Shown piece by piece: positions 1 through 16,393 of a DNA stretch of 64,000 nucleotides (its first letter is position 1; every line of letters starts with the position of its first letter). Below the pieces are notes generated by a model. It searched no databases. It saw only the letters and a program-made list of their open reading frames with translations, and was not told the origin of the DNA. Origin of the DNA: Anaerolineae bacterium (GTDB lineage Bacteria > Chloroflexota > Anaerolineae > B4-G1 > SLSP01). The position numbers were made by a program, and so were the translations under genes. The stretch lies in NCBI GenBank assembly GCA_035347995.1, contig DAOPQD010000005.1:6433-70432 (forward strand). The letters run 5' to 3'.

Positions 1-264
1 AACCCGTGGCCCACCAGGGGAAGCCGCGGCAACCCCATCTGCTGCATGAATAGCGCCACCTGGGCCACGTAACTGTCAATGGAATAACGGGTGCGATTCT
101 TGTCCGAGTCCCCAAAGCCCCAGAAATCGAGCGCGTAGGCGCGATACGACGAGGACAACGCGACCATCGTCGGCACCCAGTAACGCCAGGAACCGAGCCA
201 GCCGTGCAGGAAAAGCAGCGGTTTTCCGCGGCCCAAAGCCTCGTAGTGGGCAAGGCTGCTTTCC
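1..264 (-). CDS. alpha/beta hydrolase fold protein, N-terminal part only (gene starts at 264 and runs off the window edge). It is a paralog of the 9133-9918 gene.
   Basis: Reverse-strand translation from the ATG at 264 gives MSAVILESSLAHYEALGRGKPLLFLHGWLGSWRYWVPTMVALSSSYRAYALDFWGFGDS... This is about 55% identical to the N-terminus of the 9133-9918 product and carries the HGW/GxSxG-type alpha/beta hydrolase N-terminal region. Confidence 0.7.
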
Positions 265-300
265 AGAATGACGGCACTCATCCGTTCACGCTCCGCAAGT

Positions 301-678
301 TCAGGCTTTCCCGTACTGCTGCAGAATCTGCTTCACTTGTTTGATCAGCTCATCAGGCGCAAAGGGCTTGAGAATATACTGCGCCGCCCCGACGCTGAGC
401 CCTTCTTGAATTTCGCTTTCCTGGCCCTTGGCCGAAAGGAACACCACCGGCGTAGATTGCATCTCCGGTATCTGCATCAACGCGGCGCAGGCCTGATAGC
501 CGGTCATGCGCGGCATCCGCACGTCCATCAAGATGAGATCCGGCCTGACCTGCGGCGCCCTTTCCACCGCCTCGGCCCCGTTAGCCGCCAGTTCCACCTC
601 GAAACCGGCAAAGCGGAGGGTGAAGGCAATCAGCTCGCGAATATCACGTTCATCTTCGGCTACGAGGATCTTGACCAT
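301..678 (-). CDS. single-domain response regulator (CheY-like receiver)
   Basis: 125-aa ORF MVKILVAEDERDIRELIAFTLRFAGFEVELAANGAEAVERA...LILMDVRMPRMTGY... with the conserved D-D-K receiver signature. It lies 3 nt downstream of the histidine kinase stop. Confidence 0.85.
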   Translation of the reverse strand: MVKILVAEDERDIRELIAFTLRFAGFEVELAANGAEAVERAPQVRPDLILMDVRMPRMTGYQACAALMQIPEMQSTPVVFLSAKGQESEIQEGLSVGAAQYILKPFAPDELIKQVKQILQQYGKA

Positions 679-681
679 CCA

Positions 682-3600
682 TCACTCCTTGTTCCCGTCA
701 GCACTTTCTACCAGGCGGGAAATCTCCTCTCCCAACTCCTCCATCGAGAAAGGCTTCGTGACAAAACGTGTTGCCCCCAGCGCTTTCATCGCCGATGCGC
801 TCCCATTCCCCGGTTCGGCAAAACCCGTCATCACCACGACGGGGATGTTGGCCGTAGCGGGATGGCGCTTCAATTGTTGGAGCACCTCATAGCCATCCAT
901 GCCCGGCAACTTCAAATCCAGCAAAATCAGGGAGGGTGGCTGCTCCTGAGCCATCCGCAACGCCCGCTCACCGCGGGTCACCGTCCGCACCTGCAAGCCC
1001 TGCGCCCGCAAGGCCGTCCGCAGCAAAGTCAGGGTGTCCCGATCGTCATCTACTACCAGGACCGTGCCTTTGCCGGCCAATACCCGATTCACGACCTGCA
1101 ACAACCGGGCTTCATCCACCGGCTTGGTGAAATAATCCACCGCTCCCAATCGCAGCCCGCGATCCTGATCAAAAACCACTGAGACAATCACCACCGGGAT
1201 GGACGCCGTGTCGGGGTTGCGTTTGAGGAGCTGCAACACCTCAAAACCGTCCAGATCGGGGAGGCGGATATCCAGCGAGATCAAATCCGGCTGTTCCTGA
1301 CGCGCCAGGCGCAACGCCGCTTCCCCCGAGGCGGCCACCACAACCCGATGCCCCTCGTGTTCCAGCGTCAGCCGCAACATTTCGGCGACTTCGGGATCAT
1401 CCTCGACGACAAGAACGGTGGCCGCGGCATTCGCCCCCAATCCGGCAGGCGGACGCCCCACCGGCGCCGTCGCTTCCCCTTCCGCCAGCGGGAACGTCAC
1501 GGTGAAAATACTGCCCTCTCCCGGCTCACTTTCCACAGAAATTTGACCGCCGTGCATCTGCACCAGCGAGGCCGTGATCGCCAACCCCAGACCCGTGCCG
1601 CCCGCCTCCGACACCAGCGGGTTATCCACACGATAGAAGCGTGAGAAAATCCGGCTTTGATCCTCTGGCGAGATGCCAATGCCCGTATCGGCTACGGCGA
1701 TATGGAACATCTCCTCCCGGACATAAGCATAGATGGCGATCTCGCCGCCCAGCGGCGTGTATTTGAAGGCGTTTCCCACCAAGTTGGTGAGAATTTGCAC
1801 CATCCGATCGGGATCCCCGTAAGCCAACGGCAGGCCCTCCGGCAGAACGGTGCGGATCTGCAGCCCCTTCTCTTCAATCTTGGGCGTGAGTGTGACCGCC
1901 ACCTGCCGGATCAGCTCCGCCATGTCTACCGGCTGACAATGAAGCTCCACCTTGCCGCCCTCAATACGCGACATATCCAGCAAATCGTTCACCAGGCTCG
2001 TCAACCGATCGGTGTTGTTGCGAATGATGTTCAGGAATTGCACCTGCATGTCGGTGAGCGGGCCGGTAGCCCCCATCAACAGCAGATCCACATATCCCTT
2101 CACCGAGGTCATCGGCGTGCGCAACTCATGCGAAACCGTGGAGACAAACTCGCTCTTGGCGCGGTCGGCCTCCACCTCCGCCGTGATGTCGCGGAAGGCC
2201 GCCACGACCCCCAGGAACTCGCGGATCGGCGAGATGACCGGCGATAAATGCATACTCACGACTTGCCGCCCCAGTTCCAACCGTTCCGAGAGGAAATCAC
2301 CGCTCTGGTAGCTGCCCGGTTCCGCCTCCCACACCGCGATCTGCTCCAGCCAGCCGCGCACTTTGTCGCCGTAGAGCCCCAATACCTCACTCAGCGAACG
2401 TCCCATCGCCTGCGCGCGATTCAGCGTGAGGATGCGCTCCGCCGCCGCATTGAAGAGGATGATCTTGCCGCGAGCGTCTGCCACCAGCACGCCGTCGGCG
2501 ATGCCTTCGAGAATGGCCTGACTGCGAGCGGCTTCGTTCTGCTGGGTGCGCAGCATCGAGCCTACCCGCTCCGCCTGCTCGCGGATCAAACGATACAGCT
2601 CCGCGTTGTTGAGTGCATGACCGACCTGCACCGCGGCGGCTTCCACCAGCCGCTGATCCCCAGTGTCAAAGGCGTCCACCTCGGGCGAATGCAGAAAGAT
2701 CACGCCGACGGTTTCATCGCCGGCCGTGATCGGTACCGCAAGCACCGAGCGCGTGTCGTCCTCGATGGGAATCCAGCGCGCATCGAGACGCACGTCGGGC
2801 ACCATCGCCGATTGCCGGTTCGTGAGCACCCACCCCACCAGGCCCTCGTTGCGCTTGTAAGGCGCTCGCACACCCCCTGGCGGGACAGATTTGCCGCCCC
2901 CGACTGAGGCCCGTTGCTGCAAATGGCCCGTGTTCTGATCCAGCAGCAACACGGTCGCCCGCTCGGCGCGCACCGCGTCTTTGAGCATCGAGACCGTCTT
3001 GTGCAGCACCCGATCAATGTCGAGGCTGGCCACCAGGCCGGAGGCAATTTCGTACAGGATCGTCGAGCGGTCACGCTCAGTGCGCAGGCTATTCAGAGCT
3101 TCGGCCAGCTCCGCCGTGCGCTCTTCCACTCGCCGTTCCAGCTCCGCCGAGAAGTTCTTGACCTCCTCGAAGAGCTGCGCATTTTCCACCGCCACCGAGA
3201 TCTGGTCGGCGAGCATCGTCAACGTCGCCACCTGCAGCGGCTCGAGGATCCCGGCCTCGCGGCGTTCCGCGCTGAGCACTCCCACCGTGCGCCCGGCGAC
3301 CTGCAACGGCACAAGCAACGCCGACCCCACCGGCAACGGCCCCGGCGTGAAGCGCGGCTCGCCGCGCACGTCATCCAACGCCAACGGCATGCCGGATTCC
3401 ACGACGGCGCCCACCAGTCCTGCCCCCGGTTCCACCTGCAGCCCCTCGCCCAACAAACTCAGATCATACCCCGAGGACGCGCGCGGCGTCAGCGCCGTCT
3501 GACCCCGAGCTTGCAGGTACACCGTCGCATAATCATAGCCCAACAAATTGGTGACCGCTTGCGCCACCGTGTTGAGGACCAGCGAGAGGTCGAGTTTGGT

Positions 3601-5055
3601 CGTGATCGAGCGGCTCAGTTCGTTGAGCAACATCAGGGTGTTCAGCTGCAGCCGCAGGTTTTCCACCAGCCGGTTGTTGGCGATGACCACCCCAATCTGC
3701 GCCGCGAACAGCTCCAGGACTTCCAGGGAGGCCCGCGTCGGCGCCCGTCCGTCCAGAGGCTCGTCCACCGACAGATAGCCGACGGCATCGCCCTGCGGGC
3801 CATACAGCGGGACCAGCAACAGGTCCTGCGGATGCCACATGCCGGGGCGGCGAGCCTCAGGCAGGGCCACCTCCACCTCAAACACGTCCAGTTCCCCACG
3901 CCAGATGTGTTGCTGTTCAGCCGGAATGTAATAGCAGTTGCCGATGCGGAATTGCTCTTGCAGCAAGCGTGCGATCTGCGACCAGGGGCGGCGCACCTGC
4001 TTGAGGCGCTCCAAATCCACCAGGGGCATCCCTGCCCCGGCGACGCGCCGCACCATCTGCCCCTCAATCACGCTGATGAGCACGATCTCATAGCCGACCG
4101 CTTCTTGTGTGGCATACGCCATGTCCAACAGGGTCTCTTCGAGGGGGCGATCGGAACGCATCGTCCGCGTGGCTTCCAACAACAAGCGCATCTGCTCGGC
4201 GCGTTCCCGCACAAAGTTGCCCCGCAGCAGTTGCTCCTGATAGCGCCGATCGTTTCCCACCGCCAGCGCCGTTTCCGCCGCCAGCCCGTCCATGAAATCA
4301 ATCGCCGCCGGATTCAACGCCTGCGGTTGGCGGCAGTGCAGCACGATGGCCGCTGCCAGCTGCCCCTCATAAAAGACGGGCGACCACAATTCAGTCTGCA
4401 TCCCGGCCTGGTATGCCGGCGTCGGGTGCAGCTCGGCGAGATTGGGAATGTAGCGAGTGACTGGCTGCCGCATGAAAGCCACCAGCGAAGGGTCGGTCTC
4501 AGCATGGGCCAGTAGCTCCTCGTAAGCGGCGGAGGTGGCCTCCGGATAGCCCTGTGCCAGCGCCAGGGTAGGGAGCTCGTCGCGCCAGAGCCAGACCATC
4601 CCCGCATCCGCGTGAGTGAACCGCCGCGCTTCTTCCAGCACCAATTGGAGAATCCGCCCCAGTTCCAGCGTGCTGGCGATCTCCTGGGTGATGCGCCGCA
4701 AGGCGGCTTCCGAGGCAACGCGCCGCGCGACTTCCTGCTCCGCCGCCTGGGCGCGCCGGGCCTGCGCTTGCCATGCCGACGCCAGCGTAGCCCCGGCACC
4801 CGCTAAAAAGGCCGCCACGGCCCAATGCAACCACAGCGTCGGCGTGCGCCACACGGCCAACACCGCCAGCGCGAATAAAATGAGGGCCGTCAGCCAGACA
4901 CGCCGTCGCCCCTGCAGGCCCCCCAACACCGCCGGCAGGATCAACAGGTACAGCCCCACGGGCAGCGCGCCGCTATACAGCAGCAGCAACGCCAGCGCGC
5001 TGCTCAGCAACACCGCGCCCCATCCAGGCTGGAAAGAAGTCAACCGCTCACGCAT
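682..5055 (-). CDS. hybrid sensor histidine kinase with an N-terminal membrane segment, several GAF domains, a PAS domain, HisKA, HATPase_c and two C-terminal receiver domains
   Basis: 1457-aa ORF with a hydrophobic N-terminus, repeated GAF-like blocks, an H-box HELRTPMTSVKGYVDLLL, the N/G boxes (NLVGNAFKYT, DTGIGI, GGTGLGLAI) and two DDPEV/DDDRD receiver segments. Confidence 0.9.
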   Translation of the reverse strand: MRERLTSFQPGWGAVLLSSALALLLLYSGALPVGLYLLILPAVLGGLQGRRRVWLTALILFALAVLAVWRTPTLWLHWAVAAFLAGAGATLASAWQAQARRAQAAEQEVARRVASEAALRRITQEIASTLELGRILQLVLEEARRFTHADAGMVWLWRDELPTLALAQGYPEATSAAYEELLAHAETDPSLVAFMRQPVTRYIPNLAELHPTPAYQAGMQTELWSPVFYEGQLAAAIVLHCRQPQALNPAAIDFMDGLAAETALAVGNDRRYQEQLLRGNFVRERAEQMRLLLEATRTMRSDRPLEETLLDMAYATQEAVGYEIVLISVIEGQMVRRVAGAGMPLVDLERLKQVRRPWSQIARLLQEQFRIGNCYYIPAEQQHIWRGELDVFEVEVALPEARRPGMWHPQDLLLVPLYGPQGDAVGYLSVDEPLDGRAPTRASLEVLELFAAQIGVVIANNRLVENLRLQLNTLMLLNELSRSITTKLDLSLVLNTVAQAVTNLLGYDYATVYLQARGQTALTPRASSGYDLSLLGEGLQVEPGAGLVGAVVESGMPLALDDVRGEPRFTPGPLPVGSALLVPLQVAGRTVGVLSAERREAGILEPLQVATLTMLADQISVAVENAQLFEEVKNFSAELERRVEERTAELAEALNSLRTERDRSTILYEIASGLVASLDIDRVLHKTVSMLKDAVRAERATVLLLDQNTGHLQQRASVGGGKSVPPGGVRAPYKRNEGLVGWVLTNRQSAMVPDVRLDARWIPIEDDTRSVLAVPITAGDETVGVIFLHSPEVDAFDTGDQRLVEAAAVQVGHALNNAELYRLIREQAERVGSMLRTQQNEAARSQAILEGIADGVLVADARGKIILFNAAAERILTLNRAQAMGRSLSEVLGLYGDKVRGWLEQIAVWEAEPGSYQSGDFLSERLELGRQVVSMHLSPVISPIREFLGVVAAFRDITAEVEADRAKSEFVSTVSHELRTPMTSVKGYVDLLLMGATGPLTDMQVQFLNIIRNNTDRLTSLVNDLLDMSRIEGGKVELHCQPVDMAELIRQVAVTLTPKIEEKGLQIRTVLPEGLPLAYGDPDRMVQILTNLVGNAFKYTPLGGEIAIYAYVREEMFHIAVADTGIGISPEDQSRIFSRFYRVDNPLVSEAGGTGLGLAITASLVQMHGGQISVESEPGEGSIFTVTFPLAEGEATAPVGRPPAGLGANAAATVLVVEDDPEVAEMLRLTLEHEGHRVVVAASGEAALRLARQEQPDLISLDIRLPDLDGFEVLQLLKRNPDTASIPVVIVSVVFDQDRGLRLGAVDYFTKPVDEARLLQVVNRVLAGKGTVLVVDDDRDTLTLLRTALRAQGLQVRTVTRGERALRMAQEQPPSLILLDLKLPGMDGYEVLQQLKRHPATANIPVVVMTGFAEPGNGSASAMKALGATRFVTKPFSMEELGEEISRLVESADGNKE

Positions 5056-5123
5056 CTTTTCCCATCAACCCCAAACAATTTTTACGTCCCAATAGGAAAA
5101 TATTGCAAAAAAAGTCCACGGAC

Positions 5124-6017
5124 TTAAGATTTCCGCGCCCGTCGGCGCGCCTCGGCTGCCGCCTCCGTCACCTCACGAATGTCAGTGAAAGGGCCCTCGT
5201 CGGCTGAAAGCATGCCGATCTGCAGGTGCATCAAGGGCACATGCTTTTCCTCACCCTTGCTGTCATGCACCACCAGGTATCCCTGCATTCGGGTCATGAA
5301 GTCGTAGTGCGTCCCCACATTCTCCTCGAAGCGCCGTTCGAGGTCCTCTTTGAGCTGCGGCATGATCGCTTTGCGGGTAATGACAATGAAGTTATCGCCT
5401 CCGATATGACCGATGAAATCCTCCGGATAGCCGAGACGCTCCACGGCCTCATTGAGCACCAGCGCCGTGAAGCGCAAGACCTCCTCGCCCGCCACGAAGC
5501 CATACACCTCGTTAAAGGCGTCCAGCCCCGGAATGCCGATGTAGAGGATGCCCCAATCCGCCAGGCGCAGCAGCTGCCGCAATTGTTGCTCGATCAGCCG
5601 GCCGCTCGGCAGGCCGGTCGTCGGGCTCGTCAGACTCTCGATCTCGGCGCGCTTGATGGTGTTCCGCACGCGCAACCGCAGCTCTTCCACGTCGAAGGGC
5701 TTGGTGATGTAGTCATCGGCACCCAACTCCAGGCCGTGGATTTTGTCGCTGCGTTCGTCTTTCTGCGTGAGGAAAAGAATGGGGATATGACTGGTACGCA
5801 GGTTGGTACGCAGCTGCCGGCAGACTTCATACCCGTCAATGTCGGGAAGCATGATGTCCAGGACGATCACATTGGGGAGCAACTGTCGCGTTGCCTCCAG
5901 CGCATCCTGTCCCCGCGGCGCAACATGCACTTCGTACTCCAGGGATCTGAAATACAGCTGTAACATGTTGGAGATGTCGGGATCGTCTTCCACTACCAGA
6001 ATACGGCCTTCACTCAT
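5124..6017 (-). CDS. response regulator with a C-terminal GGDEF-fold domain that is degenerate (GGDNF instead of GG[DE]EF)
   Basis: 297-aa ORF with an N-terminal receiver (ILVVEDDPDISNML...VLDIMLPDIDGYEV) and C-terminal GGDEF fold (LTSPTTGLPSGRL...HIGGDNFIV...). The catalytic Glu is replaced by Asn. Confidence 0.85.
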   Translation of the reverse strand: MSEGRILVVEDDPDISNMLQLYFRSLEYEVHVAPRGQDALEATRQLLPNVIVLDIMLPDIDGYEVCRQLRTNLRTSHIPILFLTQKDERSDKIHGLELGADDYITKPFDVEELRLRVRNTIKRAEIESLTSPTTGLPSGRLIEQQLRQLLRLADWGILYIGIPGLDAFNEVYGFVAGEEVLRFTALVLNEAVERLGYPEDFIGHIGGDNFIVITRKAIMPQLKEDLERRFEENVGTHYDFMTRMQGYLVVHDSKGEEKHVPLMHLQIGMLSADEGPFTDIREVTEAAAEARRRARKS

Positions 6018-6070
6018 GTCCTACCTCCTGCCCCGCGAATCCACAGTGGGTCGGGGGTGCCTTTGTGACC

Positions 6071-7147
6071 TCAGGTTGCTCGCGCTTGGGCCTTGACGCG
6101 CGCGATGGTCGCGTCAGGCAGCACCTGCTCGAAACTGCGCAGAGCCGCCAGGCGGAAGCCGTGCTTTTCCGCCACGGCGTCTATGTCCTCCATCTGCTCA
6201 AGCGTTAAGTCTTTGCCCAAAGAATAGTCCTCGAAGCGCCCTTCCAGCGCCAGGGTCATGGTCTCTGCCATACATCCAAAGGTCAACGTCGGCGGCAGCC
6301 CATAATCGAAGCCGAAATCTACCGCGCCGGGCACTTCCGCCAATCCGCCATCGAAGACAAGCACGTCATCTCGCGCCTGCGCCACCTGCCAGGAGACGTC
6401 CCTCGGACGCGAAACATCACAGACCACCGCTCCGCGACGCAAGTGCTCCGGACGCACCAGGTTCCCCCCCGCGCTGGTCACGGTGATCACCACTTCCGCC
6501 TGTTGAATATCGGCGACTTCTGTAGAAAGCCGCACCTCAGGCGCCCCGCCGGCCCGCAGTCGCTCGCCGAGGGGCTCCAGGTGTCGCAACTCACGTCCGA
6601 CCAACAGCACCGAGCCGAATTCACGCGCCAGACTTTGCGTCACGATGCTACCGATAGCCCCGGCCGCGCCGACTACCGCCAGGGTCACGGCGGCGGGATC
6701 GTACTCCATCCGCCGCACCGCCTCACGGGTCGCGCGAATGGCCAGCGCCGCGGTGTAGCTGTCGCCGGAAGTGACGGCCAGATCCAGAGCGCGGGCGATC
6801 GTCACCCCGCCATCTCCCACGACCGAGGTGTAAGCCCCTAACCCCAGGATTTGCGCCCCCAGGCGCTCCGCCATCCGTCCCGCGGCGATGATTTTACGGT
6901 ACACCTCCGTCGGCGGCAGCTGCAACATCCGCTGCACGGTGTAGGGCACGGCGAGCAGCCACCCCTCGATCTCTTTGCCCGTCGCCGCCGAGCGCACCCC
7001 CGTGACATGGGAGATGTACACCGGCGGCCAAAAACGCGAGGCAAAATCAATCACCGGCTCAGGCAACATCCGCCCCAGCAGGGGATACTTGCGTGCCACA
7101 TCGCGTTTGGCCGACAGCGGATGAATGATAAAGGCAAACGCATCCAT
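6071..7147 (-). CDS. NAD(P)-binding oxidoreductase of the cyanobacterial acyl-ACP reductase (AAR) family
   Basis: 358-aa ORF co-linear with cyanobacterial AAR. The N-terminus AFIIHPLS matches AAR GLIGHLTS. The motif AVVGAAGAIGS matches AAR VAVVGATGDIGSAV. The C-terminus FGCMAETMTLALEGR...EQMEDIDAVAEKHGF matches AAR FACFAEAMLLEFEGW...EKMEAIGEASVRHGF. A Cys equivalent to the AAR catalytic Cys is not obvious by eye. Confidence 0.7.
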   Translation of the reverse strand: MDAFAFIIHPLSAKRDVARKYPLLGRMLPEPVIDFASRFWPPVYISHVTGVRSAATGKEIEGWLLAVPYTVQRMLQLPPTEVYRKIIAAGRMAERLGAQILGLGAYTSVVGDGGVTIARALDLAVTSGDSYTAALAIRATREAVRRMEYDPAAVTLAVVGAAGAIGSIVTQSLAREFGSVLLVGRELRHLEPLGERLRAGGAPEVRLSTEVADIQQAEVVITVTSAGGNLVRPEHLRRGAVVCDVSRPRDVSWQVAQARDDVLVFDGGLAEVPGAVDFGFDYGLPPTLTFGCMAETMTLALEGRFEDYSLGKDLTLEQMEDIDAVAEKHGFRLAALRSFEQVLPDATIARVKAQARAT

Positions 7148-7161
7148 AAATTTTTCGTGTT

Positions 7162-8415
7162 TTAACGAGGATACAATCTTGGATGTGCGATCTCCGGATT
7201 CGGCAGCTTCCAGTGATCGCTGTCCTCGTAAGTAATATTCCGATCAATGACCCGGCGTTCAGGCGAGGCAAACAGGATCACATCGGACTCAATCATCCGC
7301 GCCGGGAAGATGACCATCCCCGAGCCAATGCGGACATGATGTCCTACCGCCGAACCGATCACCGACAGGCCGGTGTTTTCCAGGCGTCCGCCGAAGTGCG
7401 ATCGAATGGGAATAGTTGGGACCAGGTTGAAATCGGTGAAGGTGTTGCCCGCGCCGATGAACGTCTCCCGTCCCACGACGCACATCTGCAAGCAGGTATT
7501 CTGCGCCACCATGCAATCTTCCATCAGCACCGTTTCGAACAGCGAGGCGCGAAAAGGCAGGAACGTCCCGTCGCCGACGACGCTCAACAGCATCTGACAC
7601 CCGTGAGAGATATTCACATTGTCACCCAACACGCAGTTGGCGATCATGGCTCCCGCCCCAATCGTGACGTTGTTACCGATGATCGTCGGCCCCTGGATGA
7701 TTGCCGTAGGATCAATCTGACAATTCTTACCCACCTGCACCAGGGCAGAGCTCCCCAGCAGTTGCCGGCGCTCGAGCATCGCCTGCCACAACAAGCGCAG
7801 GTTCAGCCCCAAGTCCTTTTCCAGAGAGCGCTCGAAACGCGCCCCAATGGAAAAAATGCCAAACATGACGTTGGCAAAAAGAATGTGGATCCAATGCTCG
7901 ATAGAAAGGAACGCCTTGGTAGGCAGCTGATACACCAAATCGCCGTAGACGTTGGACATGTGAGTCGGCACATGGTAGTATCCCGCTTCTCGCGGCTCGG
8001 TGTGCATCACCAGCGGGCGCACCACCGGCTCGATGCCGTAGGGATAATACCACAAGTCCGCCACATACACGTTGCCCTGACGCCGAATGCCCCGCTGCAA
8101 ATAGATCGCATGTTGCGAAATGGCGGGGTCATCCAGCTCGAAGGCCACCTGACAGGCTTTCCCCAGGCTACGCGCCTGCACGATAAATTCGTCAATGAAG
8201 GGCTGATCGAAATAAAGATTCTCACGGTACACGAGCGTCTCGACGCGGTCATGCCCGATCTCGGAAAGAGAATCCACCTCCAACTCTTCGGTCGTGTAGG
8301 GTACCAGGATGTCCCGTTGATGAAGCCACAACGGCTTACACAGCACGCTCAGATCGCGCGCGGGCTCGTTGAACGGCGGTATTTTGCGTTTTTCGCGCAG
8401 GATGATTTTACGCAC
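7162..8415 (-). CDS. left-handed beta-helix (hexapeptide-repeat) acyltransferase-like protein with an ~230-aa N-terminal domain of unclear type; GTG start
   Basis: 417-aa ORF with a C-terminal run of hexapeptide repeats (IDPTAIIQGPTIIGNNVTIGAGAMIANCVLGDNVNISHGC...IGAGNTF...IGSAVGHHVRIGSGMVI). It lies 14 nt upstream of the AAR-like gene. Confidence 0.65.
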   Translation of the reverse strand: MRKIILREKRKIPPFNEPARDLSVLCKPLWLHQRDILVPYTTEELEVDSLSEIGHDRVETLVYRENLYFDQPFIDEFIVQARSLGKACQVAFELDDPAISQHAIYLQRGIRRQGNVYVADLWYYPYGIEPVVRPLVMHTEPREAGYYHVPTHMSNVYGDLVYQLPTKAFLSIEHWIHILFANVMFGIFSIGARFERSLEKDLGLNLRLLWQAMLERRQLLGSSALVQVGKNCQIDPTAIIQGPTIIGNNVTIGAGAMIANCVLGDNVNISHGCQMLLSVVGDGTFLPFRASLFETVLMEDCMVAQNTCLQMCVVGRETFIGAGNTFTDFNLVPTIPIRSHFGGRLENTGLSVIGSAVGHHVRIGSGMVIFPARMIESDVILFASPERRVIDRNITYEDSDHWKLPNPEIAHPRLYPR

Positions 8416-8432
8416 CGAGCTGCTTCCTTATC

Positions 8433-8467
8433 CACCCAGCGTTACGGAACCCACCCAGCGTTACGGA
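8433..8467. repeat. tandem direct repeat, two copies of CACCCAGCGTTACGGA with a 19-bp period, immediately upstream of the RBS of the LbH gene
   Basis: Read directly in the sequence: tccacccagcgttacggaa|cccacccagcgttacggac. Confidence 0.6.
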
Positions 8468-8470
8468 CGA

Positions 8471-9136
8471 TTACACCCCAGGCGTTCGCCCAATCTGGAA
8501 CGTGCAGGCGGGGTCCCCTAAGGCGATGCACGTCACTTCTGCAACCTCGAAGGGCTTGCCCCCACTTGCCCAATATAGCGTCTCCGCCAGCAATCCTGTC
8601 ATCAGAGAACAGACCGGATAGCTCGCCCGCCAGCCCCAACAAAAGCCGCACTGCTTCATGATCCAGAAGTAGCTCTCCGCCGTCTCCGACAATTGCACCT
8701 GCTGCGCCGCATAACGGTTGAGGATCTCCGCCAGGACCTCCAGGCTCAGGCGCACCCGAAAAGTGAGCGGCAGAATACGGAACATCACGTCGGCGACGCT
8801 CAGCAAGCCGCCAAAATCCTGGACGCCATACCGAAACGCGACACGCCCCGCGCGCAGGCAGAGCTGTTGCCCGCTGTGCGCCCCGTGCAATTCATCTATC
8901 GCCGTGAGCAGCTGCGCCACCGCCGTAAACGACAAGGCCGGCTCGAAGTTGGTCGGCAATGGCCGCTCGCCCAGCTCCGGAAGACGGGCCGCCGTCAACA
9001 CGGCCTTCAGGCTGTTAGCTCCGAGCACTTCCTCCAGCGACAGGAGCAAAATGCGTACGAATTTATTGGGAAAGTACCCCTCCGCGTGCGGGTCGTCACC
9101 CGCGAGCTCCGCCTCAAACCGCTGCGCCATCGTCAC
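8471..9136 (-). CDS. V4R (4-vinyl reductase) domain protein
   Basis: 221-aa ORF with a C-terminal CGFCWGW...C...C cysteine pattern and overall composition typical of V4R hydrocarbon-binding domains. Its start overlaps the stop of the hydrolase gene (9133-9136), which indicates operon linkage. Confidence 0.6.
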   Translation of the reverse strand: MTMAQRFEAELAGDDPHAEGYFPNKFVRILLLSLEEVLGANSLKAVLTAARLPELGERPLPTNFEPALSFTAVAQLLTAIDELHGAHSGQQLCLRAGRVAFRYGVQDFGGLLSVADVMFRILPLTFRVRLSLEVLAEILNRYAAQQVQLSETAESYFWIMKQCGFCWGWRASYPVCSLMTGLLAETLYWASGGKPFEVAEVTCIALGDPACTFQIGRTPGV

Positions 9137-9918
9137 TGCAGATCCAGGAAATCCTGCACAACCTGGTTAAAATGGTCTTTTTCATCCAGCATGGGAAAAT
9201 GCCCGGAGCCTTCAAAGTAATGGATCAGCGCATGTTTGACTCCGGCCTGCAACACGTTGCCCTGATGGGGATCCACGATATTGTCCTTGACCCCATAAAC
9301 GCCCATGACCGGGATGCGCAGCTCTTGTAAGCGAGGGCGCAAATCGGTAAAGCGCAAATCGCGGATGCTATCCGAAAAAGAGTTCATCGTGGTGCTGGAT
9401 AAGTCCTTTTGAAACATCTCGTACCAGGTGCGCCAGTCGCGGGCGTAAAACCGCGAGGCGATCCGCATCCCAAAAGCGAAAGCGCGCGGGAACCGATACA
9501 GCAATCCGGCAATGCGCCGGTTACCGGCCAGTTTGAGCGGCACCGCCAGCCCTGAACCGACCACGGGGGAGCCTACCACCGCCACACGCGAGACCCGCTG
9601 CGGATACATCAACGCCAGGCTCAGCGAGACGGTCCCCCCCATCGAGTGCCCCATCACCGGCGCACGCTCCACACCCAGGCGTTCCATGAACTGATTCACC
9701 ATCTCCACATATTCGCCGACGGTGAATGCCCCGTGTTTGGCCGACTCGCCAAAGCCCCAGAAATCAAGCGCGTAGGTCTTGTACCTGGAAGCCAACAGCT
9801 GCATCGTGGGAAGCCAATAGCTCCACGAACCCAACCAGCAATGCAGCAAGATCACCGGCTTGCCGCGTCCGATGGCTTCATAGTGGACGATTCCACGATC
9901 GGTGACAATGGCTACCAT
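9133..9918 (-). CDS. alpha/beta hydrolase fold protein (paralog of the gene at 1-264)
   Basis: 261-aa ORF with HCWLGSW...ALDFWGFGES...GHSMGG, which contains the GxSxG nucleophile elbow. Confidence 0.85.
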   Translation of the reverse strand: MVAIVTDRGIVHYEAIGRGKPVILLHCWLGSWSYWLPTMQLLASRYKTYALDFWGFGESAKHGAFTVGEYVEMVNQFMERLGVERAPVMGHSMGGTVSLSLALMYPQRVSRVAVVGSPVVGSGLAVPLKLAGNRRIAGLLYRFPRAFAFGMRIASRFYARDWRTWYEMFQKDLSSTTMNSFSDSIRDLRFTDLRPRLQELRIPVMGVYGVKDNIVDPHQGNVLQAGVKHALIHYFEGSGHFPMLDEKDHFNQVVQDFLDLQ

Positions 9919-10011
9919 GACATCAATTCCGGCCTCTCCCCAGTGCTTCTATGATAACATACCTCTTGCGGCCGAAGCAAAAGGGGCCGTTGCGGTTCGG
10001 TTAAAAAACGG

Positions 10012-10551
10012 TTACTCTTCGGTCTGATCCATGACCTCGAGGATTGAATACAGGAGTTCCAGCAACACTTGCTTGACGCTCTCACGGTCGCGCGCCACGC
10101 ACGGGACGACCTTGACGCCCGGCTCAATCTTGAGCACGATGCGCAAGTCATCAGCCGGCCAGGCATCCGGTATGTCCTGCTTGTTGGCGGCGACGATGTA
10201 CGGCACAGGCGAATAGGCGCGGAAAGTGTCTAAAATGCGCTGCGCCTCGCGGAAGGTCTCCGGCCGGGTGCTGTCCACCATCACCACAAAGCCCAGCATC
10301 CCCTCAGAGAGGATTTCCCACATAAAATCGAAACGGCGCTGTCCCGGCGTGCCAAACAAATAGAGGATCAATTCCTCATCAATGGTAATGCGACCGAAGT
10401 CCATCGCCACCGTCGTCGCGTCCTTAATACGCTCGGCCCGGCTGGAGATCTTCCTTTCGGTCGAAACGACATCAATTTCACTCACACTCTGGATGAATTC
10501 GGTCTTCCCAGAAGCAAAGGGCCCCGTCACGACGATCTTCAGTGTTTGCAT
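10012..10551 (-). CDS. small Ras-like GTPase of the MglA-like/Arf-like prokaryotic family
   Basis: 179-aa ORF with P-loop GPFASGKT, G3 region LFGTPGQRRF (the usual Asp is not present) and G4 NKQD. Confidence 0.8.
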   Translation of the reverse strand: MQTLKIVVTGPFASGKTEFIQSVSEIDVVSTERKISSRAERIKDATTVAMDFGRITIDEELILYLFGTPGQRRFDFMWEILSEGMLGFVVMVDSTRPETFREAQRILDTFRAYSPVPYIVAANKQDIPDAWPADDLRIVLKIEPGVKVVPCVARDRESVKQVLLELLYSILEVMDQTEE

Positions 10552-10554
10552 GGA

Positions 10555-11415
10555 CTAGAGCTCCCGAATGCGATCAATGAGCTTGTGAATCAAGCTGCGC
10601 TTGACGTCAGGGCGACGCGCCCCCATCATGGCCTCAGGACGTTCCTTCTCCTCCGGCCGAACGCTCCGCGGCTCCCCGACCGTGGCTTCAGCCATCTGCC
10701 TCGGCGGACGAATGATTTCGACCAACCCCGCTTGCAGCAGGCCATAGACGATCTTGCGAATCTGAAATTCGCTCATGTTGTTGTACTGTGCGATCTGCCG
10801 GATGGCGTTGCGCGGATTGACGAAGGAAATCACCCGCCACTCCTCCACAGTCAGGTTCACATCCCGCAACGGGGTGTTGGGCTTCTCGGCAAATTTCAGC
10901 GCCACGTCGAGGGAAGGGATCTCTTCCTGCAGCCGTTCCCACTCTTTGAGCCGCCGGCTCCCCTCCATAATGACGTTTTCCAGGGCAATCGAGCTCACCA
11001 GCTTGCCCTGAATGGGCAACTCGTTCGGCTCGAAGCGGAACGTCCCCGCATTCCAGGAAAACACGCTGTAAGCCGTGTCCGTGATGTGTTGGCGCACGAG
11101 CTGCACCAGTTCCTGCTGCTGGACATGTCCCGACTGGATAAGCATCAGCGCCACATCCCGGTCGGGTTTGCTACCCATGTTGGTCGCAATAACGCGCGCC
11201 TGCTCCGCCGTCAACTTACCCGCTTTTTGTAGCAAAGGCAACAACGCGAGTTCCTGTCCATCCGCCGCCGCGTACACTAACGCTCCCTCGCGGAAACACA
11301 GGTAGGCCTTGCTTTGCGCACCCTCCAGGTAGAGCGTCCCCGTTTTACGGGCCAGGTTGATCAGGTTCAGCAGTTGTGTGATGCCGAAATCCTTCAAGTT
11401 GCCTTTTAGCGCCAT
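10555..11415 (-). CDS. DUF4388 domain protein
   Basis: 286-aa ORF whose N-terminus LKGNLKDFGITQLLNLINLARKTGTLYLEG matches the DUF4388 signature. This family is frequently encoded next to MglA-like GTPases. Confidence 0.65.
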   Translation of the reverse strand: MALKGNLKDFGITQLLNLINLARKTGTLYLEGAQSKAYLCFREGALVYAAADGQELALLPLLQKAGKLTAEQARVIATNMGSKPDRDVALMLIQSGHVQQQELVQLVRQHITDTAYSVFSWNAGTFRFEPNELPIQGKLVSSIALENVIMEGSRRLKEWERLQEEIPSLDVALKFAEKPNTPLRDVNLTVEEWRVISFVNPRNAIRQIAQYNNMSEFQIRKIVYGLLQAGLVEIIRPPRQMAEATVGEPRSVRPEEKERPEAMMGARRPDVKRSLIHKLIDRIREL

Positions 11416-11480
11416 TTCTGCCGTCCTTACTCCGATCTCAGGAAAACCAAAAGTGTGTCGTGAAAATCTTACATAACCCC

Positions 11481-11508
11481 ATTATAACTTGCTTCTAAGA
11501 GTCAGCAA
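11481..11508 (-). promoter_or_regulatory. candidate sigma-70-type promoter for the 11.4-kb minus-strand gene array (TTGCTG, 16-nt spacer, TATAAT on the minus strand), overlapping the recN stop
   Basis: Minus-strand reading ttgctgactcttagaagcaagttataatgg, followed by a ~60-nt 5' UTR containing AAGGACGG before the ATG at 11415. Confidence 0.35.
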
Positions 11509-13330
11509 ACCCGCCTTTATGCGCGGCCGCCTGCGCCAGAAGTTCTTCCGCGCCCTGCCGCGAGGCCGCGCCCTGCGTCCCCAACATCTGCGCCAGTTCC
11601 TCCAACCGCGACGCCGTTTCCAAACGCCGCACCGTGGTCACCGTGCGCCCTTCCACCACGGCCTTTTGCACGCCGTAATGGGCATCGCCAAACGCGGCCA
11701 GCTGCGGCAGATGGGTGATGCACAACACCTGATGCGCCGGCTGTGCGTCCCCCGTGGCCGCTCCCGTTGGCCGGGTCAGCCGCCAGAGCTTGGCGCCGAC
11801 AATGGCCCCAACGCGCCCGCCGATGCCCTGATCAATCTCGTCGAAAATCAACGTCGGTGTGCGATCGGCGCGCGAAAGCACCGTCTTGAGCGCCAGCATG
11901 AGCCGCGCCGTCTCTCCCCCCGAAGCAATGCGCGCCAGCGGCTTGAGTCCCTCGCCTACATTCGGCGCGATCAGGAATTCCACCTGCTCCACCCCCGTGA
12001 GATCGAAAGCGGCGGACGATACGGGAGTGTCGTCCTGGACCTCGACGTCGTCTGCCGTGACCCACACCTCCGCCGGCAGCGCCGTTTCCAGCGGCAGACC
12101 GGCGGGGTCCGTCTCACAGCGGAACGCGACGCCAAACCGCGTCCCCCCCATGCGCAGATCGGCCAGTTCCCCCTCAACGCCGGCAGCCAGCCGTCGCGCG
12201 GCATCTCGTCGCGCCGCCGACAGCGTCCCACACAGTTCCGCCGCCGCCACACTGCACGCCGCCGCCGCTTCTTCCAGCCCGGCGATGCGCTCGTCGCTGT
12301 GCTCCAGAGCTTCCAGCTCCGCCGCGATTCTGGTCGCGTAGGCCAGAATCTCAGGGATGTCGCCGCCGTATTTGCGCCGCAGGCTGTGAATCAGCGCCAG
12401 GCGCTCCTCGACCTGCTGCAGCCGGCGCGGGTTGAACTCGATGCGGCCCAGGTATTCCCGCAGGGAGCGCGCCAGATCCTCGAGCTGATACACTGCTTCC
12501 AGCCAGGCGCTCTCCTGAGAGCTCAGCGAGGGATCCACCCGCACCAGCGCGGCCATCTCCCGTTGCCCCTGGCCCAACAGATCAAGCACCGCCGGCGACT
12601 CTTCCGCGCCCTCCTCGAGCAGCGTCAGCAACGTCGCCGTCAGCGACGCCAGCTGCTCCGCATTCGCCAGGCGAACGCGCTCTGCCGCAAGCTCGTCCTC
12701 CTCGCCGATTTGCAACGCCGCGGCCGTGAGCTCCTGCAGCTGGAAGCGCAACAGGTCCTGCCGCTGCATCCGGCTGCTTTCGTCCTGGCGCAGCGCTTGC
12801 AACTCCCGCCGTACTGCCTGCAGGCGTCGGACCGCCTCAGCGACGCGCTCCCGCAATTCCCCGAGATCGGCAAAGCGATCCAGCAGCTGCACATGCTCCG
12901 CAACCCGCAGGAGGCTCAGATGCTCGCTCTGCCCGTGAATGTCCACCAACTGCTCGCCAAGCTGGCGCAACAACGCCGCCGCGACCACCGAGCCGTTGAC
13001 ACGCGCGACCGAACGGCCATTGTCGCGGAGCTCGCGACTCAGCCACAGCACATCGGCGGCCTCGCTATCCAGCCCCTCTTGCTCGAGGAGCGGCGCGAGC
13101 CGCGCCTGCTGCCCGGCGTCGAGCTGAAACATCCCTTCGACCAAGGCGCGCGTGGCGCCCTCGCGGATCGCCGTCGCATCGGCGCGCCCGCCCAGCAACA
13201 GCATCACCGCATCAATCACGATGGATTTACCGGCGCCGGTCTCCCCTGTGAGAATATTGAAACCCGGCTCCAGGTTCAAATGCAATTCGTCAATGATGGC
13301 AAAATCTCGAATATGCAGCTCTTTTAACAC
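11495..13330 (-). CDS. recN: DNA repair protein RecN
   Basis: 611-aa ORF MLKELHIRDFAIIDELHLNLEPGFNILTGETGAGKSIVIDA... with a long coiled-coil and a C-terminal ABC signature. Confidence 0.95.
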   Translation of the reverse strand: MLKELHIRDFAIIDELHLNLEPGFNILTGETGAGKSIVIDAVMLLLGGRADATAIREGATRALVEGMFQLDAGQQARLAPLLEQEGLDSEAADVLWLSRELRDNGRSVARVNGSVVAAALLRQLGEQLVDIHGQSEHLSLLRVAEHVQLLDRFADLGELRERVAEAVRRLQAVRRELQALRQDESSRMQRQDLLRFQLQELTAAALQIGEEDELAAERVRLANAEQLASLTATLLTLLEEGAEESPAVLDLLGQGQREMAALVRVDPSLSSQESAWLEAVYQLEDLARSLREYLGRIEFNPRRLQQVEERLALIHSLRRKYGGDIPEILAYATRIAAELEALEHSDERIAGLEEAAAACSVAAAELCGTLSAARRDAARRLAAGVEGELADLRMGGTRFGVAFRCETDPAGLPLETALPAEVWVTADDVEVQDDTPVSSAAFDLTGVEQVEFLIAPNVGEGLKPLARIASGGETARLMLALKTVLSRADRTPTLIFDEIDQGIGGRVGAIVGAKLWRLTRPTGAATGDAQPAHQVLCITHLPQLAAFGDAHYGVQKAVVEGRTVTTVRRLETASRLEELAQMLGTQGAASRQGAEELLAQAAAHKGGFADS

Positions 13331-13393
13331 ACGCGCCCCTCACCCCGCAGATATACTCGCGCTTCAGTTATACTTTCCACTATACTTTCCACG

Positions 13394-13414
13394 GTTACAA
13401 TCTTTCATTGTAAC
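13394..13414. promoter_or_regulatory. perfect 8+8 inverted repeat GTTACAAT-ctttc-ATTGTAAC located 64-84 bp upstream of the recN start; candidate SOS/LexA-type operator
   Basis: The palindrome is read directly. It is preceded by the tandem repeat tatactttccac x2 (13366-13392). Confidence 0.4.
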
Positions 13415-13458
13415 GATTCAACCACCGACTGAGAAACGGCATAGATTTCAGAGCAATT

Positions 13459-13659
13459 GCTGAAAGAATCAAATTTGTAATACGTACCGCCTTTGCCCCC
13501 TATCCCCTTCCCCCCGCGCGCGCGGGGGGAAGGGGACTTTTTTGCCCCCTTATTTTTTCTCCCCCTCCCCAGTGCGTGCACTGGGGAGGGGCAAAAACTA
13601 CCGGTCACAAAGGTTCGTCCATTGCCGTCTGGATAGTTGACGCCAGGTTGAACAGTTAC
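13459..13659 (+). repeat. copy 1 of a ~200-250-bp structured intergenic repeat element made of modular GC-rich hairpins each followed by T-runs
   Basis: It shares its start (gctgaa(a)gaatcaa), a body (tttgccccctatcccc, the palindrome ccccttccccccgcgcgc(gc)ggggggaagggg + T-run, ttattttttctccccctcccca-loop-tggggagggg) and a tail (acaaaggttcRtccatYgccgtc...cgccaggYtgaacagtYac) with the copy at 47836-48085. Confidence 0.8.
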
Positions 13660-13969
13660 GAGATTTGAAAGATTATGGCCGTGAGCAGTATCACATCATC
13701 GAAAATTTACCAGAGATGCCGGAGACACAGGAAAAATCTGATAAGACGCCGTGTCCTCTGTGACTCCAGGGTTAAAATTATTTGCGCCGCTGAGGCCGTC
13801 TTATTTCCGATACCGTCCAATGAAAAAAAGCATATACCTGATTAGCCGAGAAAGCAAGTCCGCCGACGTTTGGAAGGCTTTGAAACAGGTCTGAGAGCTT
13901 TTGAGAGCTGCTTTATGCTAAGATGTGAGCGTTAAAAGATAGCCAGGACATCGGGAGTATAGTCTGCCT

Positions 13970-15271
13970 GTGGAACACAGTTCCCGTATTGCGGGATTTT
14001 ATAATCTGAGCGGCGCTGAACGTCTGCAGCTGGTTGCCGACTGGGCCGCGCTGAATGCCGAAGAGCAAGCCGTGCTCTCCGGCATTTTGGGCCTGGATGT
14101 GGAACACGGCGCGGCCATGATCGAGAACGTTATCGGGATCTACAGCCTGCCACTCGGCATCGCCGCCAATTTCACGGTGAACGGCCGCGACGTGCTGGTG
14201 CCCATGGTGATCGAGGAGCCGTCGGTCGTCGCGGGGGCCTCGCTGGCTGCCCGACTGGCGCGCGCCGGCGGTGGCTTCAGCGCAAGCACCGCCGAGCCGG
14301 TGATGATCGGACAGCTGCAGGTCATGGGCCTTGACGATCTCGAGGCCGCGCAGGCGCGCCTTCTGGCGGAGAAAGCGGCACTCCTGGCCCTGGCCCATGC
14401 CGTGGACCCTGTCCTCGCGCAGCTGGGCGGCGGCGCGCAAGACCTGGAAGTCCGCCTCCTGCCGGAGACGCCCGCCGGTCCCATGCTCATCGTGCACCTG
14501 CTCTACGACGTGCGCGACGCGATGGGCGCCAATGCTGTCAACACGGCCTGTGAACGCCTCGCGCCGGAAATCGCTCGGCTTACCGGCGGGAGAGTCTTCC
14601 TGCGCATTCTGAGCAACCTGGCGGATCGTCGCCTGGCGCGCGCCGGGGTCGTCATCCCCGAAAGCGCGCTGGCGTTTGATCACTTCAGCGGCGAAACGGT
14701 CGCCCTCGGCATCGAACAGGCCTGGGCCTTCGCTGCCGCCGATCCCTACCGCGCCGCGACGCACAACAAAGGCATCATGAATGGCGTGGATGCGGTCGTG
14801 CTCGCTACGGGGAACGACTGGCGCGCCATCGAAGCGGGGGCCCATGCCTACGCCGCCCGCGAGGGGCGCTACACGAGCCTCAGCACGTGGCAGCGCGATG
14901 GGAAGGGCAACCTCGTCGGCAGCCTGGAGCTGCCCCTGGCGTTGGGCATCGTCGGCGGGGCGACGCGCGTGCATCCGACGGCGCGGGTCGCGCTCAAAAT
15001 CCTGGGGGTGCAGACTGCCCGCGAGCTGGCGGAGATCGTCGCCAGCGTGGGACTGGCGCAGAATCTCGCCGCGCTCCGCGCCCTGGCGACAGAGGGCATC
15101 CAGAAGGGACACATGAGCCTGCACGCCCGGCAGGTCGCCATGGCAGCCGGCGCTACGGGAGAAGCCATCGAGCGCGTCGCCGAGGCCATGATCGCCGAGG
15201 GCGTTATCCGCGTGGATCGCGCCACGGCCTGGTTAGAGCATTTTTACCGCGAGGAGCACGGCGCCGCGTGA
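13970..15271 (+). CDS. hydroxymethylglutaryl-CoA reductase, class II; GTG start
   Basis: 433-aa ORF with ...ENVIGIYSLPLGIAANFTVNGRDVLVPMVIEEPSVVAGAS... typical of class II HMGR. Confidence 0.9.
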   Translation: MEHSSRIAGFYNLSGAERLQLVADWAALNAEEQAVLSGILGLDVEHGAAMIENVIGIYSLPLGIAANFTVNGRDVLVPMVIEEPSVVAGASLAARLARAGGGFSASTAEPVMIGQLQVMGLDDLEAAQARLLAEKAALLALAHAVDPVLAQLGGGAQDLEVRLLPETPAGPMLIVHLLYDVRDAMGANAVNTACERLAPEIARLTGGRVFLRILSNLADRRLARAGVVIPESALAFDHFSGETVALGIEQAWAFAAADPYRAATHNKGIMNGVDAVVLATGNDWRAIEAGAHAYAAREGRYTSLSTWQRDGKGNLVGSLELPLALGIVGGATRVHPTARVALKILGVQTARELAEIVASVGLAQNLAALRALATEGIQKGHMSLHARQVAMAAGATGEAIERVAEAMIAEGVIRVDRATAWLEHFYREEHGAA

Positions 15272-15319
15272 GGCGTCGCACCGTGTCCGGCGCGCCGAAA
15301 CTGGAATCAGGAGGTCATT

Positions 15320-16384: not shown

Positions 16385-16393
16385 GAGGCACGG

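Follow-up and report, generated by a model that had tools for sequence, protein, structure and literature searches.

A conserved ten-gene array around an MglA-family small GTPase in Anaerolineae

A ten-gene array and its conservation

The stretch of DNA analysed here (64,000 nucleotides of contig DAOPQD010000005.1 from an Anaerolineae bacterium; hereafter the window, whose positions are used throughout unless another locus is named) carries at positions 1-11415 ten consecutive genes on the minus strand. They encode, in order, a PATAN (DUF4388) protein, a small GTPase, an alpha/beta hydrolase (Hyd1), a V4R protein, a hexapeptide-repeat (LbH) protein, an AAR-like reductase, a response regulator with REC and degenerate GGDEF domains (REC-GGDEF), a hybrid histidine kinase, a single-domain REC protein and a second alpha/beta hydrolase, Hyd2 (Table 1). 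An initial annotation, made from the sequence alone, had described ten such genes and placed the ends of the array at PATAN and Hyd2; open reading frame calling reproduces the genes, the boundaries stand as drawn, and every one of the domain calls is recovered with Pfam and NCBIfam. Many near-identical metagenome contigs share the GTPase sequence and the array, and the homologues of the GTPase are labelled Anaerolineae or Chloroflexota.

Table 1. Genes of the array and candidate signals in the window, with the basis of each assignment
Feature	Position	Strand	Basis
PATAN (DUF4388/PatA_N) protein, 286 aa, first gene	10555..11415	-	Pfam PF14332 9.5e-30
MglA-family small GTPase, 179 aa	10012..10551	-	Pfam ATP_bind_1 1.3e-20, Ras 2.2e-8, also Arf
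Hyd1, alpha/beta hydrolase, 261 aa	9133..9918	-	Abhydrolase_1 2.6e-30
Stand-alone V4R protein, 219-221 aa	8471..9136	-	Pfam V4R 2e-9
LbH (hexapeptide-repeat) protein, 417 aa	7162..8415	-	Hexapep 1.2e-12
AAR / PigE N-domain reductase-like protein, 358 aa	6071..7147	-	Shikimate_DH 2.8e-9; PigE 1.9e-61
Response regulator, REC and degenerate GGDEF, 297 aa	5124..6017	-	REC 1.4e-29, GGDEF 2.2e-10
Hybrid histidine kinase, 1457 aa	682..5055	-	Pfam: 4 GAF, PAS, HisKA, HATPase_c, 2 REC
Single-domain response regulator REC, 125 aa	301..678	-	Response_reg 2e-30
Hyd2, Hyd1 paralogue, last gene; first 93 of 262 codons in window	1..281	-	Open reading frame; full gene from source contig
Candidate sigma-70-type promoter	11481..11508	-	TTGCTG-16-TATAAT
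Weak terminator-like hairpin, GTPase-Hyd1 gap	9962..9984	-	8 pairs (4 GC), poor T-tract

Synteny was followed from three anchors, the GTPase, V4R and LbH genes, and the denominators given here are loci with enough flanking DNA. The GTPase-anchored set holds one genome per species, with reading frames annotated by searching with the window proteins, and comprises 30 Chloroflexota species whose GTPases are 70-85% identical. PATAN precedes the GTPase gene in all 30; the genes downstream are Hyd1 (18/27), V4R (18/27), LbH (14/22), the AAR-like reductase (8/20), REC-GGDEF (12/19) and the large kinase (13/17), in an order that is constant throughout. A word-indexed homologue search for V4R returned 14 proteins only, and its diversity was taken from loci instead: a scan with a 14-sequence V4R alignment gives 80 metagenome loci in which V4R identity runs from 95% down to 39%. 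Upstream of V4R lie the GTPase gene in 50 of 50 loci, PATAN in 42 of 43 and Hyd1 in 58 of 64, and the same loci carry LbH (at least 54/61), the reductase (38/47), REC-GGDEF (39/41) and the kinase (32/36).

The third set consists of the four most distant LbH homologues on long contigs (65-67% identity). PATAN, GTPase and Hyd1 are present upstream in all four loci, and all ten genes, through REC and Hyd2, in three. Their upstream neighbours differ (SIR2, YhhN, an opposite-strand ferredoxin gene and GMP synthase), as do their downstream neighbours, and the gene or genes beyond Hyd2 vary between lineages. As an internal control, adjacency to recN is retained in just 5 of 40 loci, which all belong to close relatives, and the array thus outlives the surrounding synteny. 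The same order in dozens of species with unrelated flanks is more than chance. The initial annotation had made its single-system interpretation depend on synteny in relatives and on profile support for its V4R and DUF4388 assignments; the association holds from each of the three anchors, and the assignments hold as described below.

In the closest species-level relative (L007, a 1.24-Mb contig) each of the genes for Hyd1, REC-GGDEF and REC is broken into two reading frames that overlap (10621-11518, 14435-15323 and 19852-20233), which are more likely to be frameshift errors of long-read assembly than pseudogenes. At another locus (L129, 7001-8752) a 210-aa hexapeptide transferase and a DegT/DnrJ aminotransferase follow Hyd1 and V4R and replace the 417-aa LbH protein.

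An iterative Roadblock profile finds no Roadblock/MglB gene in the 64-kb window, and Roadblock adjoins the GTPase gene in 3 of the 30 Chloroflexota loci as against 44 of 50 non-Chloroflexota loci (L037-L086), the latter including Streptomyces conservon-type loci. The three exceptions have Roadblock directly after the GTPase gene, in the slot held here by Hyd1 and V4R, and in L036 the order is PATAN-GTPase-Roadblock-V4R. The earlier observation that the GTPase has no Roadblock partner, with V4R and a hydrolase in its place, is therefore borne out by both the window search and the Chloroflexota count. Beyond the Chloroflexota PATAN and GTPase genes still pair, usually alongside Roadblock, and Hyd1, V4R and LbH are absent; the adjacency is also found in Aquificota, Actinomycetota, Caldisericota and cyanobacterial loci. 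An Actinomycetota metagenome-assembled genome (L038, 5165-10531) has three tandem Roadblock genes followed by a gene for a 1130-aa PATAN-containing protein and the GTPase gene, which is a different elaboration of the PATAN-GTPase core. In the most economical history the ancestral core is Roadblock/PATAN/GTPase, V4R was added in the Chloroflexota, the hydrolases, LbH, reductase and two-component genes were then recruited within the Anaerolineae, and Roadblock was either lost or relocated elsewhere in the genome.

The genes of the array are closely spaced. In the window the gaps, from REC-kinase up to GTPase-PATAN, are 3, 68, 53, 14, 55, -4, 93 and 3 bp, so that the maximum is 93 bp (GTPase to Hyd1) and not the 68 bp at which the initial annotation had ended its range (from -4 bp). 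This gap is an outlier, since its median in relatives is 27.5 nt. The other median gaps in relatives are 24 nt for PATAN-GTPase, -1 for Hyd1-V4R (the Hyd1 stop overlaps the V4R start in most species), 9 for V4R-LbH, about 0 for LbH-reductase, 16 for reductase-REC-GGDEF and 20 for REC-GGDEF-kinase. For each gene the 150 nt preceding it were searched for the best sigma-70-type promoter match, scored out of 12. Before PATAN a match of at least 10/12 is present in 32 of 70 loci and of at least 11/12 in 27 of 70, typically TTGAC[GT]-17-TATAAT. Before the GTPase, Hyd1, V4R, LbH, reductase, REC-GGDEF and kinase genes just 0-1 of 31-92 loci reach 10/12, and among in-gene controls 0 of 69 do so. The window's own candidate promoter lies about 65 nt ahead of the PATAN start, overlapping the stop codon of recN; the sequence is present as first reported, and as a promoter it is poor, with a weak -35 box, a score of 9/12 and a match below the scan tool's per-hexamer threshold. 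The statistics point consistently, if indirectly, to one main promoter before PATAN, and from promoter and gap statistics alone we infer that the array is co-transcribed. The ten genes do share one strand, as had been stated, and so do genes outside the array: recN (11495-13330), separated from PATAN by 79 bp on the upstream side, has the same orientation, and in the source contigs so do the genes for an amidase, an Rce1-like protease, SSB and others that follow Hyd2.

The encoded proteins and the rest of the window

All G motifs of the GTPase are intact (G1 GPFASGKT, G2 TT, G3 GTPGQ and G4 NKQD). GPFASGKT and NKQD are invariant in a 22-sequence alignment and conform to the P-loop GxxxxGK[ST] and NKxD patterns; the G2 and G3 motifs lie in the segments TTVAMDFG and LFGTPGQ, T46 and T47 are invariant in the same alignment, and there is no intrinsic arginine finger. 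GTPGQ, with threonine for the usual aspartate, and a threonine that replaces the intrinsic arginine finger form the signature of MglA groups 2-5 (PMC4316618), and by its sequence we assign the GTPase to the MglA family, group 2-5 type. Its phyletic spread (Chloroflexi, Aquificae, Actinobacteria and Cyanobacteria) matches that of MglA group 5, and its closest solved structure is Thermus thermophilus MglA (3t12, E 6.7e-9). The best Pfam match, ATP_bind_1, would suggest a GPN-loop GTPase; we rejected this assignment because the G2 and G3 motifs and the structural match point to the MglA family. More than 8000 homologues were found; identity is at least 79% throughout the top 120, an unusual degree of conservation.

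The PATAN protein matches PF14332 over residues 4-160 with 103.6 bits against a cut-off of 25, and the length of this match relative to the 122-position model is consistent with an inserted segment. A helical insert at residues 57-89 gives summed phmmer matches to TAL-effector repeats (best whole-sequence E 1e-12); no single stretch is significant, and this is probably a compositional or helical-repeat resemblance. The C-terminal region (about 176-240) is conserved across five phyla and is winged-helix-like (MarR_2, E 0.034); no REC domain is fused to PATAN in the 286-aa protein, whose C-terminus has this winged-helix resemblance instead. Homology of the C-terminus to DUF742/CvnC was considered and set aside as too weak, the hhalign probability being 37% over 40 helix-turn-helix columns.

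V4R scores 37.8 bits against a PF02830 cut-off of 31, so that both it and DUF4388 lie above their Pfam cut-offs, and a confident structural model agrees with the V4R assignment, predicting the H-NOX/V4R/TRAPPC3 (Bet3) fold. V4R is related to TRAPPC3/Bet3 (PMC2253512, PMC10933270). H-NOX proteins are the top fold matches of the model; an H-NOX haem sensor was nonetheless rejected on sequence, as V4R has no Pfam HNOB match and no YxSxR motif, and carries instead a V4R-typical cysteine cluster (C163, C166, C176, C203 and C211). It could plausibly sense a hydrophobic ligand. In the sampled loci V4R is never found away from the PATAN-GTPase pair.

The two hydrolases are paralogues, as had been proposed (Hyd2 is 35% identical to Hyd1), with different predicted fates. 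The Hyd1 triad Ser92/Asp212/His240 is kept in 17 of 17 complete orthologues, and in the eighteenth locus, the frameshift-split L007, the two fragments together carry all three residues; Hyd1 is predicted to be catalytically active. Its closest solved relatives are MhpC/BphD-type hydrolases, and it can be described as MhpC/BioH-like. The nucleophilic serine of Hyd2 is replaced by glycine or alanine in four of five orthologues, with the aspartate and histidine kept, its lid is about 16 residues shorter than that of Hyd1, and it is predicted to be a pseudo-hydrolase, a status that was not visible in the initial annotation because the window cuts the gene. The Hyd2 clade also has a conserved basic C-terminal tail, LKxEWxRRxR, which Hyd1 lacks and which may serve for docking (a full-length copy lies at 10398-11186 of L089).

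The PDB matches of the LbH protein (GlmU, LpxD and gamma-carbonic anhydrase) are confined to residues ~190-380, and residues 1-190 find nothing in Pfam (E up to 10) or in PDB profile searches. The N-terminal domain (~1-215) is family-specific, matching just 158 of the 50%-identity clusters of 1.84 billion proteins, where it stands at the N-terminus of full-length proteins of ~400-530 aa. Members of the LbH family (P0124, P0128 and P0133 among them) are named 'multidrug transporter' in NCBI records; they have no transporter features, and the name is a propagated misannotation.

The reductase-like protein matches the NCBIfam PigE N-domain over residues 4-353 (208 bits, partial model), and its PDB matches are 4ppm (6e-36) and AAR 6jzq (1e-22). 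With the AcACP_reductase model TIGR04058 it scores 98.9 bits (3.6e-28) against an equivalog cut-off of 449.7, and we class it by these scores as a homologue of AAR and not an orthologue. It is an optional member of the array.

REC-GGDEF conserves the phospho-acceptor Asp54 and Lys106. Its alignment comprises 12 full-length orthologues and a thirteenth, L007, which is frameshift-truncated and gapped at the GGDEF motif; a canonical GGDEF is present in 0 of the 12, the motifs (window included) being GGDNF, GGANY/GGANF, GGDDF, SSETF and GRDNF, and the alignment holds no RxxD I-site. The window motif is GGDNF, in keeping with its first description as degenerate. The kinase has a hydrophobic N-terminus with ~3-4 predicted membrane helices (read from sequence), an intact H-box (SHELRTP) and the aspartate in both REC domains. 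It spans 1372-1878 aa in four gene-called loci, with longer, end-truncated frames in others, and the length of its sensor region varies among relatives. The single REC gene, 3 nt after the kinase gene, is conserved in L007, L031, L093, L094 and L095.

The remainder of the 64-kb window consists of housekeeping genes, with no Roadblock, pilus or second GTPase gene among them and no tRNAs in the window; an Rfam search of 1-14000 gave sub-threshold noise only, with no riboswitch or leader. Among terminator-like sites in the first 14 kb, a perfect 15-bp GC-rich hairpin at 13503-13536 (TCCCCTTCCCCCCGC...GCGGGGGGAAGGGGA), followed by a T-run, stands out as much the strongest; it lies in the intergenic region between recN and an HMG-CoA reductase gene. 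That gene opens a plus-strand cluster divergent from recN (13970-17551, continuing to ~18.1 kb) for HMG-CoA reductase, an HMG-CoA-synthase-like protein (ACP_syn_III_C), a thiolase and a small DUF35/OB_ChsH2_C protein, which is an archaeal-style mevalonate-pathway entry module in an Anaerolineae genome. Farther along (55641-57371, plus strand) the gene for a 576-aa DUF6909 protein lies between those for the FAD/2Fe-2S and molybdopterin subunits of a xanthine-dehydrogenase-family enzyme.

A proposed multi-input GTPase switch and its alternatives

The array is probably one conserved, co-transcribed functional unit. We somewhat favour the fuller reading, in which the ten genes form one conserved Anaerolineae operon for multi-input signalling built on a small-GTPase switch along the lines that follow; the specific wiring is tentative, and we consider it unlikely to be right in this form. 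PATAN and the GTPase would be the ancestral core of the switch, a role suggested because the pair is kept in five phyla. V4R would act as a lineage-specific sensor or regulator of this switch, since its linkage is strict, it is the sole added gene in the short loci described below, and it lies in or next to the Roadblock slot. Hyd1 would be translationally coupled to V4R and would make or remove its hydrophobic ligand, and the LbH acyltransferase-like and acyl-thioester-reductase-like proteins would supply an acyl-derived molecule. The membrane-anchored multi-GAF/PAS kinase would phosphorylate both REC proteins, which would in turn act on the PATAN/GTPase switch by a 'split PatA' logic in which PATAN and REC belong to different polypeptides, and the dead hydrolase Hyd2 could serve as adaptor or receptor. 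Possible outputs are polarity, surface motility, envelope and filament organisation.

A more specific role for V4R can also be formulated, and we think it improbable: that it is a ligand-gated regulator of the MglA-family GTPase (an exchange factor, a GTPase-activating protein or a regulator resembling a GDP-dissociation inhibitor), replacing or complementing Roadblock/MglB and responding to a lipid-like ligand from the neighbouring hydrolase, LbH protein and reductase. If true, this would be the first prokaryotic functional link of the V4R/Bet3 fold to a small GTPase; bacteria would then offer a precedent for how eukaryotic TRAPP operates, in a setting where a phosphorelay also feeds into the switch. 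The strict V4R-GTPase linkage is also relevant to the proposal that Bet3, a TRAPP subunit, descends from V4R.

The main rival to a single GTPase-centred system is a set of two or three independent neighbouring units, co-inherited and without functional cross-talk: a PATAN-GTPase(-V4R) switch, a set of lipid or envelope enzymes (Hyd1, LbH and the AAR-like protein), and a two-component system (REC-GGDEF, kinase, REC and Hyd2). We judge this unlikely, though seriously to be reckoned with, and a number of observations weigh on its side. The array is modular: PATAN and GTPase stand alone in L016 and L030, a short PATAN-GTPase-V4R form followed by thiamine genes is found in L010, L036, L174 and L165, the AAR-like reductase is frequently absent, and the LbH-anchored Thermoflexus locus ends after the reductase gene, with the enzymes present and no kinase. 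In the window the 93-bp gap between GTPase and Hyd1 holds a weak terminator-like hairpin, where no internal terminators had been reported, and unrelated housekeeping genes share the strand of the array. The favoured reading is weakened further by its own materials, as no Hpt protein is encoded in the array, the 'split PatA' step is pure analogy, and the AlphaFold2 model of LbH (from a 29-sequence alignment) has a mean confidence score (pLDDT) of 47.8, too poor for catalytic residues. In addition, the anchored sets come from one class and were picked by similarity, so that shared descent inflates the counts. Set against independent units are the persistence of order and tiny gaps as the flanks turn over, an association recovered from all three anchors, and the presence of consensus promoters before PATAN only, the Hyd1, LbH, REC-GGDEF and kinase genes having none. 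The hydrolase paralogues also stand at opposite ends of the array, one adjoining V4R and the other REC.

The genes next to the short loci are repeatedly those for thiamin pyrophosphokinase, a thiamine-binding protein, and ABC or NMT1/THI5 proteins (L010, 11684-16222; L036, 12247-15123; L174, 6955-9005; L165, 4185-6212). Either lineage synteny accounts for this, or the neighbourhood recurs for some unexplained reason.

A second alternative takes the array as a metabolic operon for a lipid or acylated envelope component, run by the adjacent two-component system, with the GTPase and PATAN just positioning the machinery. The three acyl-type enzyme-like proteins (the MhpC/BioH-like hydrolase, the LpxD/GlmU-like LbH protein and the AAR/PigE-N-like reductase) fit such a role, as do the short hexapeptide transferase and DegT aminotransferase after V4R in L129. 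The enzymes are the less constant part of the array, with the AAR-like protein optional and all of them missing from the short forms; moreover, no conserved transporter, glycosyltransferase or acyl carrier protein gene is present in the array, one of the two hydrolases is predicted to be dead, and the V4R/H-NOX fold is typical of sensors. We give this reading a low probability. A defence island was rejected, as PADLOC gave generic REC and HATPase cross-matches only and no defence-system match.

Comparison with known systems

The nearest characterised relatives of the switch are MglA and MglB of Myxococcus xanthus and Thermus thermophilus, with which the array shares an MglA-family GTPase, the G3 motif GTPGQ and, in T. 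thermophilus MglA, the best solved match. A PATAN gene adjoining the GTPase gene is likewise on record for some members of MglA groups 1 and 5 (PMC4316618; also Makarova et al. 2006, as cited there). The array differs from MglA/MglB in that its GTPase lacks an intrinsic arginine finger, within 10 kb there is no Roadblock/MglB gene, here or in 27 of 30 Chloroflexota relatives, RomR/RomX are lacking, and eight further conserved genes are attached to the pair. It suggests a way for a small-GTPase switch to function with no MglB gene beside it.

Actinobacterial conservons (AGPS) couple an MglA-type GTPase to a kinase (PMC13343842, PMC4316618), and the description of GTPase-kinase coupling in the array as unusual was therefore an overstatement. 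Like the array, conservons (CvnA-D) are operons with an MglA-type GTPase, a sensor kinase and accessory sensory proteins. The array could be read as conservon-like throughout, with the kinase and GTPase in a direct complex and the GTPase as the kinase's output, PATAN in place of CvnB/CvnC, and the enzymes as accessory sensors in the manner of CvnE/CvnF. We find this quite improbable. Its appeal lies in the presence of the kinase in the same operon, in the role of conservon accessory proteins as sensory inputs to the kinase (PMC13343842), in the weak resemblance of the PATAN C-terminus to DUF742 at the helix-turn-helix level, and in the ~45% identity of the GTPase to those of Streptomyces conservon-type loci. 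In conservons the genes for CvnB (Roadblock) and CvnC (DUF742) stand between those for the kinase and the GTPase, and the Streptomyces loci carry both; neither was found in the window, there is no Robl_LC7 or DUF742 match among the ten proteins, and the hhalign result for the PATAN C-terminus is too low to supply one. The G4 motif is NKQD, compared with NxFD in group 2 GTPases (PMC4316618). Conservons lack response regulators (PMC4316618), and CvnA has a C-terminal LPxR extension; the array kinase is a canonical HisKA hybrid that ends in two REC domains and has its own REC partners in the two proteins encoded beside it (LPxR itself was not searched for). Finally, conservons belong to the Actinomycetota and the array to the Chloroflexota, and V4R, the hydrolases and LbH have no conservon counterpart. 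By these features of its proteins the array falls outside the definition of a conservon, and it extends a combination of Ras-like GTPase and histidine kinase so far limited to actinobacterial conservons.

PatA-type PATAN-REC proteins of cyanobacteria (PatA, PixG, PixE and TaxP) share with the array the PATAN domain and a phosphorelay link, and in Synechocystis the type IV pilus motor is a target of such regulators (bioRxiv 10.1101/2021.06.11.447907). In the array PATAN is unfused and has a GTPase as its partner, and the two REC proteins are separate products of the operon. Stand-alone H-NOX sensors are encoded with histidine kinases or cyclic di-GMP enzymes, as in the HnoK network. The array V4R lacks the H-NOX signature, and its linkage to the GTPase is tighter than that to the kinase. 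Any resemblance to TRAPP, in which Bet3/TRAPPC3 belongs to a Rab exchange factor, is at the level of the predicted fold only; the array GTPase is MglA-type and not Rab, and there are no longin subunits. Alpha/beta hydrolases are familiar as signalling partners, among them RsbQ with RsbP in Bacillus, and D14/KAI2 and GID1 in plants. The array has comparable elements in Hyd1, probably coupled in translation to the ligand-binding sensor-type V4R, and in the nucleophile-less Hyd2 beside signalling proteins. Affinity to those families at the level of sequence was not seen, no test aimed at it having been made, and the closest solved relatives of Hyd1 are MhpC/BphD-type enzymes.

Anaerolineae are abundant filamentous bacteria of digesters, sediments and wastewater whose cell biology is almost unstudied, and we know of no characterised member of the MglA group 5 GTPases or of the stand-alone PATAN proteins, widespread as both are. 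The conserved ten-gene context offers testable partners for such a GTPase: V4R, one hydrolase predicted to be active and one predicted to be dead, two REC proteins and a multi-GAF kinase. In our literature search no description of the V4R/hydrolase/LbH/two-component extension was found, and its sole trace is an appendix table for the cultured Anaerolinea thermolimosa in which DUF4388, GTPase, MhpC and GlmU-like genes (GAP05454-GAP05458) appear as nitrite reductase neighbours (PMC8756737). Taken together, the array looks like an undescribed, lineage-specific elaboration of the PATAN/MglA-group-5 module and not something categorically new, and by analogy it may be comparable in logic to the actinobacterial conservons.

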